From Raphidiopsis brookii D9 (GTDB lineage Bacteria > Cyanobacteriota > Cyanobacteriia > Cyanobacteriales > Nostocaceae): a DNA stretch of 27,888 bases. The stretch spans positions 1 through 27,888 of the forward strand of contig ACYB01000002.1 of assembly GCA_000175855.1 (NCBI GenBank). The letters are read 5' to 3'. The position numbers and the translations under genes were made by a program. Of the stretch, positions 8,546 through 26,068 are shown in pieces. Position 1 is the first letter of the stretch; each line of letters begins with the position of its first letter. The notes below the pieces were generated by a model that did no database searches, was not told the DNA's origin, and saw only the letters and a list, made by a program, of their open reading frames with translations.

Positions 8546-8700
8546 ATGAGTCGTAAAGGTGGTGACTTCCAAGTAGACTTTAATCGTTATGGAGGACCAG
8601 ATTTAGTAATTATTGATGAAGCACATGAAGGTATCCCTAATTATAGAAACCGTATTCACCAAACCTGTTTACAAATTCAACAGAGCGATCGCCTGTATTC
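8546..8700 (+). pseudogene. Possible relic of an SF2/SNF2-type helicase gene (motif II only)
   Basis: The translation contains GGPDLVIIDEAHEG, a hydrophobic run followed by a DEAH box. No other helicase motifs are nearby. The 3' end of the track ORF (8546-8785) runs into the duplicated unit and is not credible as coding. Confidence 0.3.
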
Positions 8701-8775
8701 AATTCAAGATAATCAACAAGAGCTAGATCTGGGGATCCTAGAATATGGAGTAACCTCATTGGTAGCCCTTATGAG

Positions 8776-9534
8776 GTGGAAGTAGAAAAGGATCTAACTA
8801 TTAGAAAACAACTGCTAGACGTCATAATCATTAAGAGATATAAAGACAGCGGATTCAATCTCTATCCAGCAGGTTTAGAAAACATGTCTAAACATAACCT
8901 GATCAGCTATAAGTCCATCCATGAATCATTCACGGTTTGGTCACTAATGGAATTAATAGGACACTACGTCAATTATCGGAAACAAACAAGTAAATCCTTG
9001 TCGAATCTGCTACCAGAGAAGGATTACAAACTATATGGATTAACAACCCACGAACCGACCCAACTAATGGGGAAATTAAAATGGAAAAGTGTCAGTCAAG
9101 GGGTTTATGATATAGAATGTGTTGGTATGAACGTTAGACTGATAGTGCTTTCCAAAATACCCAAAAGTGCCAACAATGAGTTGTGGAGACTGTTTAGTGC
9201 GAAAGCAGAAGTGGTAGAAGAAGCGATTAGCCATTATCAAGAAAGTTACCGCAACAGTGAGTATAGTGTACTAATGCAACAACTGTATGAGTTTTACTTA
9301 AAGGAGAAACTGCCAATGACGTATACATTAAAGCAATTTAAAAAAGATTTTGTAATAAGTCACTTGAGAGAGATACCGACTGAAGAGGTATTAAAGCAAT
9401 ATTCTCCAGAAGAGGTGTTAAAGCAATATTCTCTTCAGGACCTCTTAGAAGGACTTTCACCAGAGACTCTGGAGCGCTTGGCAATTATTCTGTCTCAATT
9501 GGGTGTCAACCAAATAAAAAATCAGGAGCAATGA
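8776..9534 (+). CDS. PD-(D/E)XK-fold, Rpn/YhgA-like putative nuclease/transposase-like protein, copy A (5'-truncated relative to copy B)
   Basis: Continuous 252-aa frame, paralogous to copy B. Core is EVEKDLTIRKQLLDVIIIKR...HNLISYKSIHE, an acidic residue followed by a hydrophobic strand and a (S/E)xK-like strand. It lacks the first 34 codons and the upstream region seen in copy B, and begins at a GTG. Confidence 0.5.
   Translation: MEVEKDLTIRKQLLDVIIIKRYKDSGFNLYPAGLENMSKHNLISYKSIHESFTVWSLMELIGHYVNYRKQTSKSLSNLLPEKDYKLYGLTTHEPTQLMGKLKWKSVSQGVYDIECVGMNVRLIVLSKIPKSANNELWRLFSAKAEVVEEAISHYQESYRNSEYSVLMQQLYEFYLKEKLPMTYTLKQFKKDFVISHLREIPTEEVLKQYSPEEVLKQYSLQDLLEGLSPETLERLAIILSQLGVNQIKNQEQ
9382..9435 (+). 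repeat. 2 x 27-bp in-frame tandem repeat (EEVLKQYSP)
   Basis: gaagaggt.ttaaagcaatattctcc. occurs twice. Confidence 0.9.
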
Positions 9535-9922: not shown

Positions 9923-10875
9923 ATGGTAAGTAAAAAACCCAAACCTCGGAAAAAAAACTCTTCCCAAAATCCAAATAGAGATTGGCACCGCCTTCTAGGA
10001 ATGTTTATAACCGTCCACTTCTATGGTAGCCCTTATGAGGTGGAAGTAGAAAAGGATCTAACCATCAGAAAACAACTGCTAGACATCATAATCATTAAGA
10101 GATATAAAGACAGCGGATTCAATCTGTATCCAGCAGGTTTAGAAAACATGTCTAAACACAACCTAATCAGCTATAAGTCCATCCATGAATCATTCACGGT
10201 TTGGTCACTAATGGAACTAATAGGACACTATGTCAATTATCGGAAGCAAACAAGTAAATCTTTGTCGAATCTGCTACCAGAGGAGGACTACAAACTTTAT
10301 GGATTAACAACCCACGAACCGACCCAATTAATGGGGAAATTAAAATGGAAAGGTGTCAGTCAAGGGGTTTATGATATAGAATGTGTTGGTATGAACGTTA
10401 GACTGATAGTGCTTTCTAAATACCTAAAAGTGCCAATAATGAGTTGTGGAGACTGTTTAGTGCAAAAGCAGAAGTGGTAGAAGAAGCGATTAGCCATTAT
10501 CAAGAAATTTACCTCAATAGCGAGCATAGCGTGTTAATGCAGCAACTATATGAGTTTTACTTAAAGGAGAAACTACCAATGACATATACATTAGAGCAAT
10601 TTAAAAAAGATTTTGTAATAAATCACTTGAGAGATATACCGACTGAAGAGGTGTTAAAGCAATATTCTCCGGAAGAGATCAAGCAATATTCTCCAAAAGA
10701 TTTGTTAAAGCAATATTCTCCAGAAGAAGTGTTAAAGCAATATTCTCCAAAAGAGGTGTTAAAGCAATATTCTCTTCAGGACCTCTTAGAAGGACTTTCA
10801 CCAGAGACTCTGGAGCGCTTGGCAATTATTCTGTCTCAATTGGGTGTCAACCAAATAAAAAATCAGGAGCAATGA
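9923..10875 (+). pseudogene. PD-(D/E)XK-fold, Rpn/YhgA-like putative nuclease, copy B (full N-terminus but frameshifted)
   Basis: ORFs 9923-10480 and 10444-10875 together match copy A. The break coincides with a 1-nt shorter A run: ctaaat at 10416-10421 versus caaaat at 9153-9158 in copy A. N-terminus is MVSKKPKPRKKNSSQNPNRDWHRLLGMF.... Confidence 0.6.
10645..10776 (+). repeat. 5-unit (27/24/27/27/27 bp) in-frame tandem repeat (EEVLKQYSP variants)
   Basis: Same unit as 9382-9435, expanded from 2 to 5 copies. Confidence 0.9.
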
Positions 10876-12542: not shown

Positions 12543-15311
12543 TTATAGATAGATTTCCGCTTTCAAGATAGTCCCATCCTCAGTTGGCAAAATCTCAAAA
12601 CCTAAGTTTTTACACACCTTCTGCATGGCTATATTTTCCGCCAGAATCTCCGCAAAAATCACGGATATTTTCTCATTCTTGGCTATTTCCATTAATCTTG
12701 TGAGAATTTCTGTACCTAACCCGTTGCGCTGGTAACCATCAGTGACCAACATAGCAAATTCCGCACTATTACTACCATGTAGTTTAGTTAATCTTCCTAC
12801 CGCTAAAATTTGCTTCTGTTGAGTATGTGGATCTTCCTGTTCAGCAATTAAGGCCATTTCTCGGTCATAATCAATAAAACAAATCCTAGTCAGTCTTTCA
12901 TGGGCAATTCTTTGACTTAGTTTGATCAGATGAAAATAACGAAAATAAATAGCTTCTTCCGATAATGTTTGGTGAAATTTAACCATCAATGGTTCATCTT
13001 CAGGACGAATAGGACGAATAATCACCTCCGTGCCATTTTTTAAGCTCCAATTAGCGACGTATTGATGGGGATAGGGACGAATGGCTAATTTAGGTAATTG
13101 CTCCTCTTGTACCTCAGCTGGATGTAATACTATTCTTCCATCTAATGCAATTAAACCACCTGGATGATCGGGTGTGGGGGGAATTGCTAATAAAGGATTA
13201 ATATCTATTTCTTTAATCCACGGTTGTTCTACTACCAAATGACTAAAGACTACTAACAGTTCCTCCAAAGCTTGCATATCAATACTTTGTCTACCCCTGA
13301 CCCCCCTTAAAGCTTGATAAATTTTAGTCTGCTCCATCATCCGACGTGCTAGGGTGGTATTTAGGGGTGGTAGAGCAATAGAACTATCTTGAAAGACTTC
13401 TACCAATTGTCCTCCAGTGCCAAATAATAATACTGGACCAAATTGGGGATCCAAGCTACTACCAATAATTAATTCATAGCCATTGGTTTTGACCATGGGT
13501 TGTACGGTTACACCTAAAAAATCCTCTGGTCTCGTTTTTTCTAAAACTGAGGTCTCTATAAAATGATAGGCTTTTTTTACTGATTCAGCATTTCTTAAAT
13601 TTAACTGAACTCCCCCCACATCTGTTTTATGGGTAATTGTATGGGAATACAATTTTAATACTACAGGATAGCCAATTTTTTCTGCCCATTCTACCGCTTC
13701 TTCCGGACTTTGGGCAATGCTTCCTCCTACTACTGGAATGCCATAAGCTGCTAAAATTTCCTTGGATTCAAATTCAGTTAAAATTGTTCTTCCCGCTTTC
13801 CTAGCTTCTGCAATCAGAGTTGTCACTAAACCACAATTGCGAGTATTACTATCACATTCCAAGGCGGGTAATACAGGAGTTTCATAAATCCCCTTTAAGT
13901 TATAACTATAACGCCACATATAACTAAATATCCTAGCAGCAGTATCAGGATAGGAATATGTAGGAATCCCCTCAAGGTTGAGAATTTTTTTCCCTTCTGC
14001 AATATCATCTCCACCCATCCAACTGGCTAAAATAGGTTTGCCCTGCATTTGAGAATAGGGCTTTAATTCCTGGGCAATCCTGGTGGGATCAGTCATAGCT
14101 TGAGGCGTCAAAATTACTAATAAACCATCACTATTGCTATCCTCACTGGCAATCTGTAAGGCTTTTGTATAACGTTGTGGATCCGCATCTCCCAAAATAT
14201 CTATGGGGTTATTATGACTCCATTGTGGAGGTAATATATGATTTAAATTTTCCATAGTTTGGGGAGAAATTACTGCTAATTCTCCTCCACTTTCTATCAA
14301 TGAGTCCGTCGCTAATACTCCCGGTCCACCCGCATTGGTCAGAATGGTTAATCTAGGACCTTGAGGACAAGGTTGTTTTGCTAATACTTCTGACATATCA
14401 AATAAATCAGAAATACTATTAACTCTTAATACTCCACATCTTTTAAATGCTGCATCCAAAACCGCATCACTTCCTGCTAATGACCCCGTATGGGAAGCTG
14501 CTGCTTTTGCTGCTGCTGCTGTACGACCTGCTTTAATTACTATAATTGGTTTGGTTAATGTTACTTCCCGTGCTGCTGATAAAAAAGAACGAGCATTACC
14601 AATTGATTCCATATAAATAACTATACTTTTAGTGTGGGGATCGTCTCCTAGATAATAAATTAAGTCTCCCCAACTAATATCCAACATTGAACCTAGGGAA
14701 ACAAAGGCGCTAAAACCTACATTTTCCTGTAAACTCCAGTCCAAAATTGATGTGCATAATGCACCACTTTGACTCAGGAAACCCACACTCCCTGGTTGGG
14801 CTATTTTACTAGCAAAGGTAGCGTTTAAACCAGAAATGGGGTTCATCATCCCTAAACAGTTTGGTCCAATAATTCTGATCTTTCCTCCCTGTGCTACAGA
14901 TAATATTTCTTTCTCTAAAGCAATTCCTTTTTCACCTGCTTCCTTAAAACCAGCAGAAATAATAATTGCTCCTTTGATTCCAACTTGCACACAGTCGGCA
15001 ATAATTTTTGGCACTGTGGGTGCAGGAGTAGCAATTACAGCTAGGTCAATTTTTTCCGAAATATCAAAAATTGTTGGATAGGCTTTTATACCCAGTACAC
15101 TATGACGATGGGGATTAATCGGGAAAACTGTACCATTGAAGGGATTGGTAATTAAATTCCATAGCAAAGTTCGACCCACACTCCCAGGTTTTTCACTTGC
15201 ACCAATAACTGCTACGGTTTGAGGTGCAAAAATCCTGTCTAGTGCACTAGTTTTTTCAGTACGCAATATATCAGATGCTTTATCTAATCTCAAGGGGATA
15301 GATGCTTCCAT
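12543..15311 (-). CDS. ADP-forming acetyl-CoA synthetase-family protein fused to a C-terminal GNAT acetyltransferase (Pat/YfiQ-like architecture)
   Basis: CoA-binding N-terminus [15 protein letters not shown], succinyl-CoA-synthetase-like SHTGSLAG, an ATP-grasp region, and a C-terminal GNAT ([10 protein letters not shown]). I prefer the ATG at 15309-15311 (MEASIPL...), which is preceded by AAGGAG at 15317-15322. The 77 upstream in-frame codons belong to the protease relic. Confidence 0.85.
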
Positions 15312-15751
15312 GACTGCTCCTTTTAGTTTTTGACTGATTTTATTGAGGGCCATACCTATGGATTTTTTTCCCAGGGGTGAAATAGGGTCACCCAATTGAA
15401 ATTTTTCCCCTGGGACTATGACTAACCACGCGGAAGGAGAATTACCATAGAGAAATTGAGATAAAGTTAGTAGAGATTGTGGATCACTGCTATGGGTGTG
15501 ACTGGAATTCAGTGGTAATGGCAATAGTAATTGTACTTGCACCTGATTATATAGGAATTAATACAAGTGTCTACAAAAATTGCTAATCGAGAATTGGCTA
15601 TGGGTTCAGCTAGTTCGGGTGTTAACTGGTGAACTGCAAGTGATTGGACGCATGGTAAACGCCACCTTTGTATCACTTTAGCTATTAGTGGTCCTATTCC
15701 GTCATCACCAAATAATTCATTACCATAACCAATGACTATTGCAGTTCCCAT
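15312..15751 (-). pseudogene. Hydrogenase maturation endopeptidase (HoxW/HupW-type), frameshifted and without its own stop codon
   Basis: The N-terminal half is in ORF 15509-15751 (MGTAIVIGYGNELFGDDGIGPLIA...VHQLTPELAEPIA...IFVDTC). The C-terminal half ([36 protein letters not shown]) is in a different frame and runs straight into the downstream gene. Confidence 0.7.
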
Positions 15752-15785
15752 AGTTTTTACCTTTTTTGATTAGAGTTGTTGCAGG

Positions 15786-18089
15786 TTAAATGCTTTTGTG
15801 GAAAGTCCGTTGAATCACATCTAATTGCTGTTCGCGAGTTAACTTAATGAAATTCACAGCATATCCGGAAACACGAATTGTCAGTTGAGGATATTTTTCT
15901 GGATGTTCCATAGCATCAACAAGTATATCTTGGTCTAGAACATTTACATTGATATGATGACCACCATTATAGAAGTAAGCATCCAACATTCCGCGCAGAT
16001 TATTAATTTTGTCTTGGGAATTTTTACCTAAAGCATTGGGAACAATAGAAAAAGTGTAGGAAATTCCATCTTGAGCATGTTCATAAGGAAGTTTGGCTAC
16101 CGATTCTAAAGATGCGATCGCTCCTTTTGTATCTCTACCATGTAGAGGATTTGCTCCGGGAGCAAAGGGTTCTCCAGCTTTTCTCCCATCGGGGGTGTTA
16201 CCGGTAATTTTGCCATAAACCACATTGGAGGTAATTGTTAAAATTGATTGGGTTGGTACTGCTTGACGATAGGTTTTTTGTTGACGCAGTTTATCCATAA
16301 AACTCTGAACAAGATTGACAGCTATTTGGTCAACTTGATGGTCATTATTACCAAACTGAGGATAATCCCCCTCAATTTCATAATCTATAGCTAACCCTTT
16401 GTCATCTCGAATTACCTTGACTTTGGCATATTTAATTGCTGAAAGGGAATCTACTACTACGGATAAGCCAGCAATTCCACAAGCCAAGGTTCGATAAACA
16501 TCACAATCATGTAACGCCATTTCTAAACGTTCATAACAGTATTTATCGTGCATATAATGAATCACGTTCAGGGTATTTACATATAATCTGGCCAACCAGT
16601 TCATAATTTTGTCAAACTTATCTACTACTTCCGAGTAATCTAAATATTCTGAAGTAATGGCATCAAAACCTGCAACGACTAACTGCCCAGTTTTTTCATC
16701 TTTACCACCATTAATAGCATATAACAAAGCCTTGGCTAGGTTGGCACGGGCTCCAAAAAATTGCATTTGTTTACCAATTTTCATGGCAGAAACACAACAA
16801 GCAATGCCATAATCATCCCCATATTCTGGGCGCATTAGATCATCATTTTCGTATTGAATGGAACTGCTATTAATAGATACCTTGGTGCAAAAATGTTTAA
16901 AGTTAATCGGCAAATTCTGTGACCACAAAATAGTTAAATTTGGTTCTGGTGCAGTCCCTAAATTATATAAAGTGTGGAGAAATCGGAAACTACTTTTTGT
17001 CACCAAAGTCCTACCATCTTCACTCATTCCGCCAATACATTCTGTTACCCAGGTGGGATCACCGGAGAATAATTGATTATATTCGGGCGCTCTTAAAAAC
17101 CTTACCATCCGGAGTTTAATCACAAAATGATCGATGATTTCCTGAACTTGAGATTCTGTCAAGATGCCATTTTTTAAATCGCGCTGAAAGTAGATATCTA
17201 GAAATGTAGAAACTCTACCCAAAGACATAGCTGCACCATTTTGTTCTTTAACAGCACCCAAATAACCAAAGTATGTCCACTGTACAGCTTCCTTGGCAGT
17301 AGCAGCAGGCAAACTAATATCAAAGCCGTAGTTAGCAGCCATGATTTTAAGTTCTGTTAATGCTCGAATTTGCTCAACAAGTTCCTCATGTAGTCTAATT
17401 GTAGACTCCAGCATATCATTTGACTCTAATGAGGCCAACTGTTCTTTCTTATCCAGAATTAACCGATCAACTCCATACAATGCTACCCGACGATAATCAC
17501 CAATAATTCTTCCTCTTCCATAAGCATCTGGCAATCCAGTAATAATCCCAGAGTGTCTAGCCAATTTCATTTCTTGGGTGTAACCGTCAAAAACACCATC
17601 ATTATGGGTTTTACGATATTTTGTGAATGTTTCTTCCGTTTGAGCTTCCAGGTGATAACCATAGGATTGTAAGGAGTTTTTACTACCCGAATACCACCAA
17701 AAGGCATAATTGCTCGTTTTAGGGGTTTTTTCGGTTTGTAACCCCACAATCTGCTCTAGATCGGAATCAATATAACCGGGAGCATGGGAAACAATATTTG
17801 ATGGCACTTTAGTATCAGCATCTAAAATTCCTTTTTCCCGCTCTAATTTCATCAAATCACAGACCATAGTCCATAATTTCTGAGTGCGTTCAGTTGGACC
17901 AGCTAAAAAGCTATCATCTCCTGTATAGGGTTGATAATTGCCTTGAATAAAATCCCGGACATTAATTTGTTCATTCCATTTACCACCACAAAAACCTTGC
18001 CACTGTGGATGTAAATTACTATCAGATATACCAGATATATTTTGGGTTGAATGTTCTACATTTGCTATCATAATTATCTCCAATGTCAT
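15786..18089 (-). CDS. pflB: Pyruvate formate-lyase (formate C-acetyltransferase); the ORF is intact but holds an internal out-of-frame patch
   Basis: Collinear with E. coli PflB as I recall it: [43 protein letters not shown], active-site IACCVSAM, glycyl-radical motif TIRVSGYAV. See the finding on 17677-17731. Confidence 0.9.
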
Positions 18090-18129
18090 CTAATTCAATT
18101 CTCACATATCCCCCATTTCCCTTCCTTGT

Positions 18130-20748
18130 TTATTGACCCAAATTTCCCCAATAGGCTTTGATATACAAATCTTGTAAATCACTAATCAGTGGATAACGGG
18201 GATTAGCACCTGTACATTGATCATCAAATGCTTGCTCAGCCATTGTTTCTAATTTCTCGTGGAAAGTTTTTTCATCGGTTTTAATGACATCCTTAATAGT
18301 TTGTGGAATCTCCACATCCTGTTTCAGTTTTTCCACAGCAGCAATTAACAGATCTACTTTCTCATCTTCCGTACCACCTCCCAAATGTAAGTGGTCTGCA
18401 ATTTTGGCATAGCGCCACTTGGCATTTGGATATTCATATTGGGGAAAAATAGCCTGCTTAAAAGGCGCATCGGTTGCGTTGTAACGAATCACATGGGAAA
18501 TCATCAAAGCATTAGCTAACCCATGAGGGACATGGAAAGTAGCTCCTAGTTGATGAGCCAGGGAGTGACATATACCCAAGAAAGCATTTGCAAATGCCAT
18601 GCCTGCGATCGTAGCTGCATAATGAACCTTTTCTCTAGCTTTAGTATCTTTACTTCCATTTTTATAGGCAGATGGTAAGTATTTAAACAGTAGTCGAATT
18701 GCCTCTAAAGCTAATCCCTTAGTATATTCAGAAGCGCAGATAGAAACGTAGGATTCAAGGGCATGAGTTAGCGCGTCAATTCCACCATAAGCTGTTAGCG
18801 ATTTAGGCATATTTAGCACTAATTCAGGATCTACAATTGCCATATTAGGAGTTAGTGCATAATCAGCTAAAGGATATTTGATCCCCGTCCGATCATCTGT
18901 CACCACTGCAAACGGTGTCACTTCTGAACCGGTTCCTGATGTGGTGGGAATAGCGACAAATATAGCTTTTTGTCCCAAGCTGGGTAGTTCGTATACTCGT
19001 TTGCGAATGTCCATAAACCGCATCGCTAACCCATCAAATTCTGTTTCTGGATGTTCATACATTAACCAGATCACCTTAGCTGCATCCATTGGGGAACCAC
19101 CACCAATTGCAATAATTACATCTGGTTGAAAACCATTAGTTTGAGCTAGTCCTTTATGAATTGTAGTTAAAGATGGATCAGGTTCCACATCATAAAACAC
19201 CTGGGTTTTAACGCCAATTTCCTCCAGTACACTGGTGACTTTAGTTGTGATTCCCAATTCAAATAATGGTTGATCTGTAATAATCAAAGCCCGACTTTTC
19301 CCTATTAAGTCCCCTAATGCAACTGGTAAACAGCCATATTTGAAATATACTTTTGGGGGAACCCGAAACCATAACATATTCTCCCGTCTTTCCGTTACGG
19401 TTTTGATGTTGATCAGGTGACGAGGACCCACATTATCACTGACAGAATTGTTTCCCCAACTACCACAGCCCAAAGTAAGAGACGGGTCAAGACGAAAGTT
19501 ATATAAATCACCAATTGCGCCCTGAGATGAAGGTGTATTAACTAATACTCGACTAGTGCGCAGGGTATTTTCAAATTCTGTAATTCTATCTCGTCTTTCT
19601 GGTGCTGTATAAAGGACAGAGGTGTGTCCCAGTCCAGCAAACTCAATTAATTTTTCAGCTATAGTTACAGCTTCCAGAAAATTTTTGGCTCGGTACATAG
19701 CTAAAATGGGAGAAAGTTTCTCATAAGATAATGGTTCCTGGGTGCCCACTTGATCTACTTCTGCAATTAGAACCTTAGCTTCTTTAGCTGTATCTAATCC
19801 AGACATTTGAGCCAATTTGGCTACAGATTGACCAACTATTTCTGGATTTAAGCGACCATTAATCAAAATTAAATCTCTAATCTTTTGCTTTTCTAGGTCA
19901 TTTAAGAAGTAAGCACCACGGCTGAAAAATTCTTGTCGCACATCTTCGTAAACATCATCTAAAACTATTACGGATTGCTCACTAGCACAAATCATGCCAT
20001 TGTCAAAAGTTTTGCTAATCAAAATTGAAGATACTGCCATTTTAATATGGGCAGTTTCATCAATTACCGCTGGGGTATTGCCCGAACCCACACCCAAGGA
20101 AGCATGACCTGAAGAATAAGCTGCACGCACCATTGCAGGTCCACCAGTGGCCAGAATTAAATTTATCTGGGGATGCTGCATTAGCTGCTGTGATAATGCT
20201 ACTGTTGGTTCATCAATCCACCCAATAATTCCTGCAGGAGCTCCAGCTGCTACCGCAGCATCCAGAACTATTTTGGCAGCTTCAATTGTGCATTTTTTGG
20301 CACGGGGATGGGGTGAAAAGATGATTCCATTACGGGTTTTAACAGCCAGCAAGGCTTTAAAAATAGCGGTTGAGGTGGGGTTGGTAGTGGGCACAATCCC
20401 TGCCAATATGCCCACAGGTTCGGCAATTCGCTGAATTCCAAACTGTTTATCATCTTCGATAATGCCACAGGTTTTTTCGTTTTTGTATTTGTTGTAGATA
20501 TATTCGGAGGCAAAGTGGTTCTTAATTACTTTATCTTCTACAACCCCCATTCCTGTCTCTTCTACTGCCATTTTAGCCAGGGGTATCCTCCCTGCATTAG
20601 CTGCACGAGCAGCTTGTTTAAAAATGTGATCTACCTGTTCTTGGCTATATTCAGCATATTTGACTTGAGCTGCTTTAACCTCTTGAATGAGAATTTGTAG
20701 ATCTTCTGAGGTTTTGACGGGGTTTGTAGTTTTTTGGGTTGTATACAT
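18130..20748 (-). CDS. adhE: Bifunctional acetaldehyde-CoA / alcohol dehydrogenase
   Basis: 872 aa. N-terminal ALDH domain (KTFDNGMICASEQS) plus a C-terminal Fe-ADH domain (GGGSPMDAAK, HSLAHQLG), collinear with enterobacterial AdhE. Confidence 0.92.
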   Translation of the reverse strand: MYTTQKTTNPVKTSEDLQILIQEVKAAQVKYAEYSQEQVDHIFKQAARAANAGRIPLAKMAVEETGMGVVEDKVIKNHFASEYIYNKYKNEKTCGIIEDDKQFGIQRIAEPVGILAGIVPTTNPTSTAIFKALLAVKTRNGIIFSPHPRAKKCTIEAAKIVLDAAVAAGAPAGIIGWIDEPTVALSQQLMQHPQINLILATGGPAMVRAAYSSGHASLGVGSGNTPAVIDETAHIKMAVSSILISKTFDNGMICASEQSVIVLDDVYEDVRQEFFSRGAYFLNDLEKQKIRDLILINGRLNPEIVGQSVAKLAQMSGLDTAKEAKVLIAEVDQVGTQEPLSYEKLSPILAMYRAKNFLEAVTIAEKLIEFAGLGHTSVLYTAPERRDRITEFENTLRTSRVLVNTPSSQGAIGDLYNFRLDPSLTLGCGSWGNNSVSDNVGPRHLINIKTVTERRENMLWFRVPPKVYFKYGCLPVALGDLIGKSRALIITDQPLFELGITTKVTSVLEEIGVKTQVFYDVEPDPSLTTIHKGLAQTNGFQPDVIIAIGGGSPMDAAKVIWLMYEHPETEFDGLAMRFMDIRKRVYELPSLGQKAIFVAIPTTSGTGSEVTPFAVVTDDRTGIKYPLADYALTPNMAIVDPELVLNMPKSLTAYGGIDALTHALESYVSICASEYTKGLALEAIRLLFKYLPSAYKNGSKDTKAREKVHYAATIAGMAFANAFLGICHSLAHQLGATFHVPHGLANALMISHVIRYNATDAPFKQAIFPQYEYPNAKWRYAKIADHLHLGGGTEDEKVDLLIAAVEKLKQDVEIPQTIKDVIKTDEKTFHEKLETMAEQAFDDQCTGANPRYPLISDLQDLYIKAYWGNLGQ

Positions 20749-20765
20749 GTTGGTAAGTTTAGTAA

Positions 20766-20793
20766 ATTTATGAGCTATAATTTATGAGCTATA
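20766..20793. repeat. Perfect 2 x 14-bp tandem duplication (atttatgagctata) in the pflA-adhE spacer
   Basis: Read directly: 20766-20779 equals 20780-20793. Confidence 0.9.
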
Positions 20794-20832
20794 TAGGTTG
20801 TCATTTCCTTGATTGGTTTTTAAAAATCTAAT

Positions 20833-21621
20833 TCATTGGACTTTAACTCCATAGCAACTGAAAATATCTTTGACTTTCTCTATTTCTTCTAGACTAGGAG
20901 GCATAGTATTCCCAAGTTCATAGTGATATCCTAGTTCATGCCATTTGTATTCACCTAATTTGTGAAAAGGTAAAATTTCTACTTTTTCCACATTGGTAAG
21001 TTTAGATACAAACTCTGCTAGTTGACGGACGTTTTCATCACCATCTGTCAGATAGGGAACCAGAACAAATCTTATCCATGTTGGCTTATTAATCTCTTGT
21101 AAATATTCCGCAAATCTCAAGGTTGGTTCGATGGAAACTCCCGCAACATGAAGATAGGTGTTAGGATCAAAAGACTTGATGTCTAATAAAACTAAGTCTA
21201 CAAATTCTAGCACGGACTTGGAGGTGGTTAAATCAGGAAATCCGGAAGTATCTAAGGCAGTATGAATGTTTAATTCTTGACACTGACGAAAAACCTCTCG
21301 GACAAATTCTGGTTGTAACAAGGGTTCTCCACCACTAATAGTAACTCCTCCACTAGTAAATTCCATATACGACCTATATTTTTCTATTTCTGTGACTAGT
21401 TCTCCTACAGTTATTTCTTTTCCTGTTTTCGTGTCACGGGTGTCAGGATTGTGACAATACAAACATCTTAATAGGCAGCCTTGGGTGAAAATGACAAATC
21501 TTATACCTGGTCCATCCACTGTACCACAGGTTTCTAGTGAATGAATACGACCCAATATTTGAGAACCTGGCGAAACAGTTGTTGGAGAATGATGGAGACT
21601 TTGAGAAGTTCTGGCATTCAT
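20833..21621 (-). CDS. pflA: Pyruvate formate-lyase activating enzyme (radical SAM)
   Basis: GRIHSLETCGTVDGPGIRFVIFTQGCLLRCLYCHNPD matches the PflA N-terminus and its CxxxCxxC cluster. It has a roughly 22-aa N-terminal extension relative to E. coli PflA. Confidence 0.9.
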   Translation of the reverse strand: MNARTSQSLHHSPTTVSPGSQILGRIHSLETCGTVDGPGIRFVIFTQGCLLRCLYCHNPDTRDTKTGKEITVGELVTEIEKYRSYMEFTSGGVTISGGEPLLQPEFVREVFRQCQELNIHTALDTSGFPDLTTSKSVLEFVDLVLLDIKSFDPNTYLHVAGVSIEPTLRFAEYLQEINKPTWIRFVLVPYLTDGDENVRQLAEFVSKLTNVEKVEILPFHKLGEYKWHELGYHYELGNTMPPSLEEIEKVKDIFSCYGVKVQ

Positions 21622-24001: not shown

Positions 24002-24054
24002 AATTTAACATCCAAACTAGAGATACAAAATTTACGAGATAGAGGGGGGATAAC

Positions 24055-25052: not shown

Positions 25053-26068
25053 ATGGCAATTAATCTGCAACAAGCGATGGATATTGGGAAGTACCTATTT
25101 AAACAACGTCTATCAGGAAAAAACGCTTCCCTTTAGTATTAATGTTAGAACCACTGTTTCGTTGTAACTTAGCCTGCTCAGGGTGTGGAAAAATCCAGCA
25201 TCCCACGGAAGTTCTTAAACAAAACTTGTCACCGGAGCAGTGTTTTGCAGCAGTGGAAGAATGTGGTGCACCCGTAGTTTCCATTCCGGGAGGAGAACCC
25301 CTATTACACCCACAAATTAATCAAATTGTCCAAGGTTTAGTAGATCGTAAAAAATACGTGTATTTATGTACCAACGGATTACTTTTAGAAAAGAGCTTGC
25401 ATAAGTTCAAACCGTCTCCCTATCTTACCTTTAGTGTTCATCTAGATGGAATGAAAGAGTGGCATGATCACTGTGTGGATAGAAAGGGAGTGTTTGATGT
25501 TGCTGTAGCGGCAATTCGTGCTGCTAAATCTCAGGGTTTTCGCGTCACAACCAACACCACCATTTTCACTGGTTGTAATGTAGAGGAAATGCAAGGGTTT
25601 TTTGATTTTCTAGAAACCTTGAAAGTTGATGGGATGATGATTTCTCCTGGTTACAGTTATGAATGGGCTCCAGACCAAGATCACTTTTTACAAAGGGAAC
25701 AAACTAGAGCATTATTCCGAGAAATTCTCGCCCCCTATCAATCAGGAAAGAAAAACTGGAACTTCAATCACAACCCCCTGTTCTTGGATTTTCTCATTGG
25801 GGAGAAGGACTATGAATGTACTCCTTGGGGTAGTCCCAGTTATAGTGTTTTGGGATGGCAAAAACCCTGTTACCTATTAAACGAGGGTTACTATCAAACT
25901 TTCCAAGAGTTACTAGACCAAACTGATTGGAGTAAGTATGGACATGCTAGCGGTAATCCTAAATGTGCTGATTGTATGGTGCATTGTGGTTATGAACCAA
26001 CTGCAGCAATAGATGCTATGCAACCACAAAACATAGCTCGTTCTCTCAGCACTGTTTTTGGTAGATAA
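25053..26068 (+). CDS. hpnH: Adenosyl-hopene transferase (radical SAM), with a frameshift 22 codons into the gene
   Basis: The ATG at 25053 is preceded by GAGGAG (25041-25046). It encodes [23 protein letters not shown], then the frame breaks at an A6 run (25118-25123). The conserved continuation [25 protein letters not shown] is in the frame of track ORF 25142-26068. Confidence 0.85.

Follow-up and report, generated by a model that had tools for sequence, protein, structure and literature searches.

At the pflB locus of Raphidiopsis brookii D9, an open reading frame of full length encloses a short stretch of codons that is read in the wrong frame. The locus was analysed within contig ACYB01000002.1, with a length of 27,888 nt (the window), and it raises the question whether the two one-base changes that enclose this patch are real mutations, the second of which compensated the first, or errors of the deposited sequence.

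An out-of-frame patch within pflB

The product of the window gene, with the scrambled patch included, is EFA74461.1 ('Formate acetyltransferase', Raphidiopsis brookii D9; P0127 among the fetched proteins), and a look-up of this exact product for a second record found no other record. The best protein match is the PflB of Cylindrospermopsis raciborskii with 97% identity, and the 90% cluster of that protein includes EFA74461.1. Despite the scrambled patch, the window protein passes TIGR01255 over its full length with a score above the curated cutoff (Table 1). The gene starts at the second ATG, at 18071, as in the D9 record and in all relatives, and not at 18089. The product of the mechanical open reading frame, which includes the upstream ATG (18072-18089), begins MTLEII..., and the D9 record and all orthologues begin MIANVE.

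Both patch boundaries lie in runs of A on the coding strand, which around 17677-17731 reads GTT ACA AAC CGA AAA AAC CCC TAA AAC GAG C. A reading of the sequence alone, made before the comparisons reported here (the sequence-only reading), had proposed two opposite one-base changes in neighbouring A-runs, and the deposited sequence indeed has A6 at 17731-17726 and A5 at 17681-17677. It had also counted 15 scrambled residues. Fifteen codons (45 nt) are out of frame, but only 13 of the 15 residues are altered, since K118 and F124 coincide by chance. When the sequence was corrected in silico by shortening the first run and lengthening the second by one A each, the canonical PflB string was obtained. 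The restored string aligns without gaps to residues 103-117 of E. coli PFL (PLKRALIPFGGIKMI, PDB 1h16), and the alignment continues without gaps through YRKTHN, so that the proposed match of the restored frame to E. coli PflB was confirmed as well. The restored 15 residues are those of the orthologue in every close relative, and therefore the match is not due to chance.

The statement that the gene has kept its length, its ACCVS active site and its RVSGYAV motif also held. IACCVS, with the active-site Cys-Cys, and the C-terminal glycyl-radical motif RVSGYAV are invariant in the PflB alignment, and both align to E. coli PFL. After correction, the D9 protein thus resembles E. coli PflB (PDB 1h16, 2pfl) in that the alignment is full length, has no gaps around the patch and includes both conserved motifs. 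It differs in being a cyanobacterial orthologue and, as deposited, in carrying 13 wrong residues.

The gene belongs to a set of fermentation genes on the minus strand (12543-21621), which comprises pflA, adhE, pflB, a hydrogenase maturation protease gene and a gene for an ADP-forming acetate-CoA ligase fused to a GNAT domain. The activase gene pflA lies in this cluster two genes upstream of pflB, and the cluster is syntenic in the relatives with contigs that span it.

Table 1. Positions of the genes, reading frames and homopolymer runs in the window
Feature	Position	Strand	Description
pflB (formate C-acetyltransferase)	15786..18071	-	761 aa from MIANVE; TIGR01255 1166.9 bits, cutoff 994.2
pflB, long ORF including the upstream ATG	15786-18089	-	767 aa; from the open reading frame list
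A6 run (T6 on the plus strand)	17726..17731	-	one base longer than the A5 of 12/12 relatives; +1 shift
A5 run (T5 on the plus strand)	17677..17681	-	one base shorter than the A6 of 12/12 relatives; frame restored
Out-of-frame patch	17682..17726	-	codons 116-130, 45 nt; from the alignment with the relatives
Mechanical ORF in the overlapping frame	17567..17749	-	60 aa; carries the true PflB peptide
adhE	18130..20748	-	872 aa, intact; length as in the relatives
pflA (PFL-activating radical-SAM enzyme)	20833..21621	-	262 aa, intact; TIGR02493 330.8 bits, cutoff 231.75
Hydrogenase maturation protease gene (TIGR00072)	15290..15751	-	153 aa in all relatives; 80-aa truncated ORF in the window
Private indel, A3 versus A4 in L087 and L088	10418..10420	+	splits a gene of ~317 aa (9923-10875) into ORFs of 185 and 143 aa

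Distribution of the indels among relatives and sequencing platforms

Twelve loci that encode the closest PflB proteins were used for the comparison, all from Cylindrospermopsis/Raphidiopsis strains other than D9. They were taken from C. raciborskii isolate assemblies (L083-L085), assemblies of Logan read sets (L086, L092), metagenome contigs from JGI and ENA (L087-L090), Raphidiopsis sp. BLCC-F218 (L091), and the Brazilian strains CYRF (L081) and CYLP (L082). The nucleotide identities of their pflB genes to the window gene were 98.0-99.5%. Exactly two gap openings versus the window were found in ten assemblies, three in CYRF and four in CYLP. An alignment with the closest relatives had been suggested as a check by the sequence-only reading, and it showed that both patch indels are private to the window. 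All 12 relatives have A5 followed by A6 and are in frame, and a BLAST comparison of the whole window with the 12 loci agreed. The 44 nt between the runs (17682-17725) are identical in the window and in all 12 relatives, and the relatives encode the canonical peptide there.

The result was the same at the protein level. The canonical motif is present in 142 of the 147 fetched proteins; four others are fragments that fall short of the site, and the D9 protein alone is scrambled. The sequence-only reading had allowed for the case that orthologues from related strains share the scrambled peptide; none does, either at the 12 loci or among the 143 proteins that cover the site, with the exception of the record of D9 itself. 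The corrected D9 protein is two residues away from its nearest relatives, P0123 (MVCC14-type) and P0125 (CENA303), and the exact corrected sequence was absent from the members of the cluster. Pattern scans of metagenome contigs, with A5 or A6 allowed at each run and then with the wild-type string, gave 0 matches. The first pattern fits all 12 fetched loci, so that these contigs are evidently absent from the scanned collection.

The D9 genome was sequenced in three 454/GS20 runs to 27x coverage and assembled with Newbler (Stucken et al. 2010, PMC2821919). In addition, 188 small-insert, 491 fosmid-end and 253 finishing Sanger reads were obtained, and the authors stated that Sanger reads were used for correcting '454/Roche technology intrinsic errors' (PMC2821919). 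A few hundred Sanger reads cannot be sufficient to correct a genome of 3.2 Mb. CYRF and CYLP were sequenced on the Ion PGM, which likewise uses flow chemistry (PMC5658482). A literature search for error rates of the 454 assemblies of D9 or CS-505 yielded nothing specific.

For a platform control, one-base indels in coding sequences that are present in one or two assemblies were counted over the 5,978 bp common to all 13 sequences. The window (454/GS20) had four private indels and eight private substitutions, CYLP (Ion PGM) had three and seven, and CYRF (Ion PGM) had none of either. One more coding indel, an A6 to A7 change in pflB, was shared by the two Ion PGM assemblies (substitutions were not counted for this pair). 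The other ten assemblies are apparently not derived from 454 or Ion Torrent data, being short-read assemblies to judge from their sources and contig names, and they had neither coding indels of this type nor private substitutions. Beyond D9, CYRF and CYLP, the only indel columns in the shared stretch were found at 15768, an intergenic site that follows the clades. Frame-breaking indels track the sequencing chemistry rather than the phylogeny, and a ratio of four private indels to eight private substitutions, as found for the window in the shared stretch, is implausible for coding DNA under selection.

The pflB gene is split in both Ion PGM assemblies by homopolymer indels of their own, into 446 and 330 aa in CYRF (L081, 10001-12287) and into 400 and 330 aa in CYLP (L082, 10001-12288). 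The A6 to A7 indel common to the two corresponds to 16755-16760 of the window. In CYLP, adhE and the CoA ligase gene are fragmented, too. The gene splits in these two strains are probably platform errors as well.

The D9 contig contains three extra private one-base homopolymer indels, identified by comparison with the relatives that cover each site, and they disrupt two other genes, both of which are intact in the relatives. The hydrogenase maturation protease gene, which sits between pflB and the acetate-CoA ligase gene, carries a private -1/+1 pair (GG versus GGG at 15554-15555, and T4 versus T3 at 15321-15324). Because of a stop codon between the two indels, the gene reads as a stump of 80 aa. 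This pair is opposite in sign and yet rescues nothing, which argues against selection for compensation. The 999-aa ORF downstream of the protease gene turned out to be an artificial upstream extension, by 77 codons, of the 922-aa gene for the ADP-forming acetate-CoA ligase/GNAT protein, the real start of which is the ATG at 15311. The third extra indel splits the gene at 9923-10875 on the plus strand. Altogether, five frame-breaking homopolymer indels were found in ~16 kb of comparable sequence, and three of ~12 genes are hit.

The indels are present in the deposited sequence, private to this assembly and located inside homopolymers, and the platform and the further defects of the contig are established. 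We infer that the defects arose during base-calling or consensus building and not in the cells.

Probable homopolymer miscalls and the competing explanations

The patch very probably represents two independent 454 homopolymer miscalls of opposite sign. Flow chemistry derives the length of a homopolymer from signal intensity, and the consensus would have given A6 for a true A5 and then, 44 nt downstream, A5 for a true A6. As the shifted frame is free of stop codons and the two errors, being opposite in sign, would cancel each other, the ORF stayed open, and gene callers annotated a full-length PflB, in which 15 codons would be wrong. Judged from the sequence comparisons, the pflB gene of D9 cells most likely encodes the canonical peptide and a normal, functional pyruvate formate-lyase. 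The sequence-only reading had left open whether sequencing errors of opposite sign or natural frameshift suppression had produced the patch. The 454 origin of the assembly, the private nature of the indels, the further defects in the contig and the platform control strongly favour the former, and the latter is unsupported.

The indels share several properties with known 454 and Ion Torrent homopolymer miscalls, i.e. they are one-base changes in runs, occur in AT-rich DNA, are private to a flow-chemistry assembly and are found several times in one contig, where they disrupt genes that the relatives have intact. They differ in that the pflB errors are opposite in sign and occupy neighbouring runs that no stop codon separates, and for this reason pflB escapes the flags for split or truncated genes and is annotated as intact.

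Three points speak against miscalls. Two errors in adjacent runs of one gene are a coincidence, consensus errors should be uncommon at 27x coverage, and real damage to pflB would be tolerated in the aerobic culture of D9, in which PFL is probably dispensable. The size of the coincidence was estimated from the frequency of runs. The window has a G+C content of 38% and contains 201 runs of at least five bases, 18 of them in pflB. Runs of this length occur every ~140 bp, which corresponds to ~23,000 per 3.2 Mb. The per-run miscall rate was assumed to be 1-3%; in the window, 2-3 of 105 runs in 13.5 kb were discordant, a figure that counts the pflB pair itself, which makes it partly circular, and that is based on few events, all from this contig. 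As a rough estimate, ~2-20 double errors in adjacent runs are expected per genome, half of them (1-10) opposite in sign. A scan for the adjacent opposite-sign pattern would be expected to find a few cases.

A real pair of mutations in D9 is the strongest of the alternatives, but it is unlikely. Slippage in one A-run, in nature or during long aerobic culture, would have inactivated pflB, and an opposite slippage in the neighbouring run would have restored the frame. The product would be a full-length PflB with 13 substituted residues, which might be crippled or partly active. Classical intragenic frameshift suppression reportedly goes back to Crick et al. 1961. In agreement with a real pair, the two indels are not multiples of three (+1 and -1), restore the frame jointly and are both private to the window, and both sites are homopolymers prone to slippage. 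The ORF is open, of full length and above the TIGR01255 cutoff. PFL would be needed only for fermentation in the dark without oxygen, so that selection on it would be relaxed in culture.

Compensatory frameshift pairs have also been documented in other taxa (Biba et al. 2022, PMC8935012; Park and Hahn 2021, PMC8127213), and the pflB indels resemble them in that +1 and -1 changes, here 44 nt apart, scramble a short peptide and restore the frame. The documented pairs tend to occur in genes under weak constraint and, within these, in segments of poor conservation, and occurrence in more than one independent assembly was used as the criterion for high-confidence cases (Biba et al. 2022, PMC8935012). 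The D9 pair differs on both counts and, in addition, is the signature error of its platform. The allele is present in a single 454 assembly; neither the 12 loci nor any of the 142 other proteins that extend over the site have it. The affected segment contains five invariant or nearly invariant residues in a gene with a ratio of synonymous to non-synonymous differences of 7:2. Weak conservation is a tendency of the documented pairs (Biba et al. 2022, PMC8935012) and not a strict rule.

The conservation of the segment was quantified with 222 PFLs from cyanobacteria, Bacillota, Verrucomicrobiota and other phyla. The patch overwrites P116 (conserved in 221 of 222), R119 (222 of 222), P123 (221 of 222), G125 (221 of 222) and G126 (222 of 222). 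By mean entropy, the patch ranks 288th of 722 segments of 15 residues and is thus moderately above the median conservation. The middling rank is explained by the high conservation of the whole enzyme. An initial expectation that few segments of the enzyme would be more conserved than the patch was withdrawn in the light of this rank. Outside the patch, the D9 gene differs from that of L083 by seven synonymous and two non-synonymous changes and from that of L087 by 33 synonymous and nine non-synonymous changes, which indicates purifying selection on D9 pflB there. Nothing suggests a decay of the pathway, as pflA and adhE are intact. AlphaFold2 models, computed with alignments of ~50 sequences, were poor both for the window protein (mean pLDDT 48.7) and for the close relative P0001 (55.2), with values of ~23-31 in the patch region of both.

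Further points also argue against a real pair. The patch contains no accommodating substitutions, and a second-site change would be no more probable than a true reversion of the run that had slipped first. Moreover, the three other private frame-breaking indels in the contig would also need to be real. If the pair were real nevertheless, it would be one more case of a documented phenomenon, unusual only for the conserved segment that it strikes, and it would permit a direct test of the tolerance of a glycyl-radical enzyme, PFL, to 13 replaced residues.

It is very unlikely that one of the two indels is real, which would make pflB a true pseudogene in D9, and that the other is a sequencing error that reopened the frame. 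Such a combination is compatible with runs that are prone to slippage and a platform that is prone to errors, and D9 could conceivably have lost PFL in culture. However, it would require a rare mutation in the cells and, in the neighbouring run, a sequencing error; selection on pflB shows no relaxation, and neither pflA nor adhE is damaged. Two errors of a kind with three further examples in the contig are also the more parsimonious assumption.

Programmed recoding, in which ribosomal frameshifting or transcriptional slippage on the A-runs would produce the canonical peptide from the deposited DNA, can practically be dismissed: A-runs can in principle support slippage, which is the sole point in its favour, but two precise and opposite shifts would be needed, and every orthologue is in frame with A5 and A6, so that there is no conserved recoding site. 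To our knowledge, efficient transcriptional slippage is known only from runs longer than 5-6 A. Phase variation was considered together with recoding, and both were rejected; none of the 12 relatives varies at the runs, and all are in frame.

Consequences for the D9 draft and minor features of the contig

Two miscalls of opposite sign thus being the preferred explanation, the main value of the results is a flag on data quality. The deposited PflB of D9 (EFA74461.1) very probably contains 13 wrong residues, and at least two other genes in the same contig are broken by the same kind of error. In inferences on gene content or pseudogenes from the 454 draft of 2010, which was described under 'smallest genomes of multicellular cyanobacteria', frameshifts should be treated with caution. 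Homopolymer errors of opposite sign can hide in an ORF that looks intact, where they are missed by detectors of pseudogenes and frameshifts.

Several minor features were observed elsewhere in the window. At two intergenic sites, differences in run length might represent either polymorphisms or miscalls. At 25124, the window has A6, L083-L086 have A7, and L087-L090 have AAAGAAA. At 24049, the window has G6 and L083-L086, the only relatives with this difference, have G5. The gene of ~317 aa at 9923-10875 has no Pfam match, and its KQYSP(E/K)E(V/I)L repeat is expanded by 18 residues relative to L087. A further frameshift was considered at 8546-9534 and rejected, as the region consists of a paralogous copy that is truncated at its 5' end, where it adjoins unrelated sequence. 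The copy (8719-9534, plus strand) has ~88% amino acid identity to the product of the gene at 9923-10875, with the junction at ~8760, and it looks like a partial tandem duplication rather than a frameshift.
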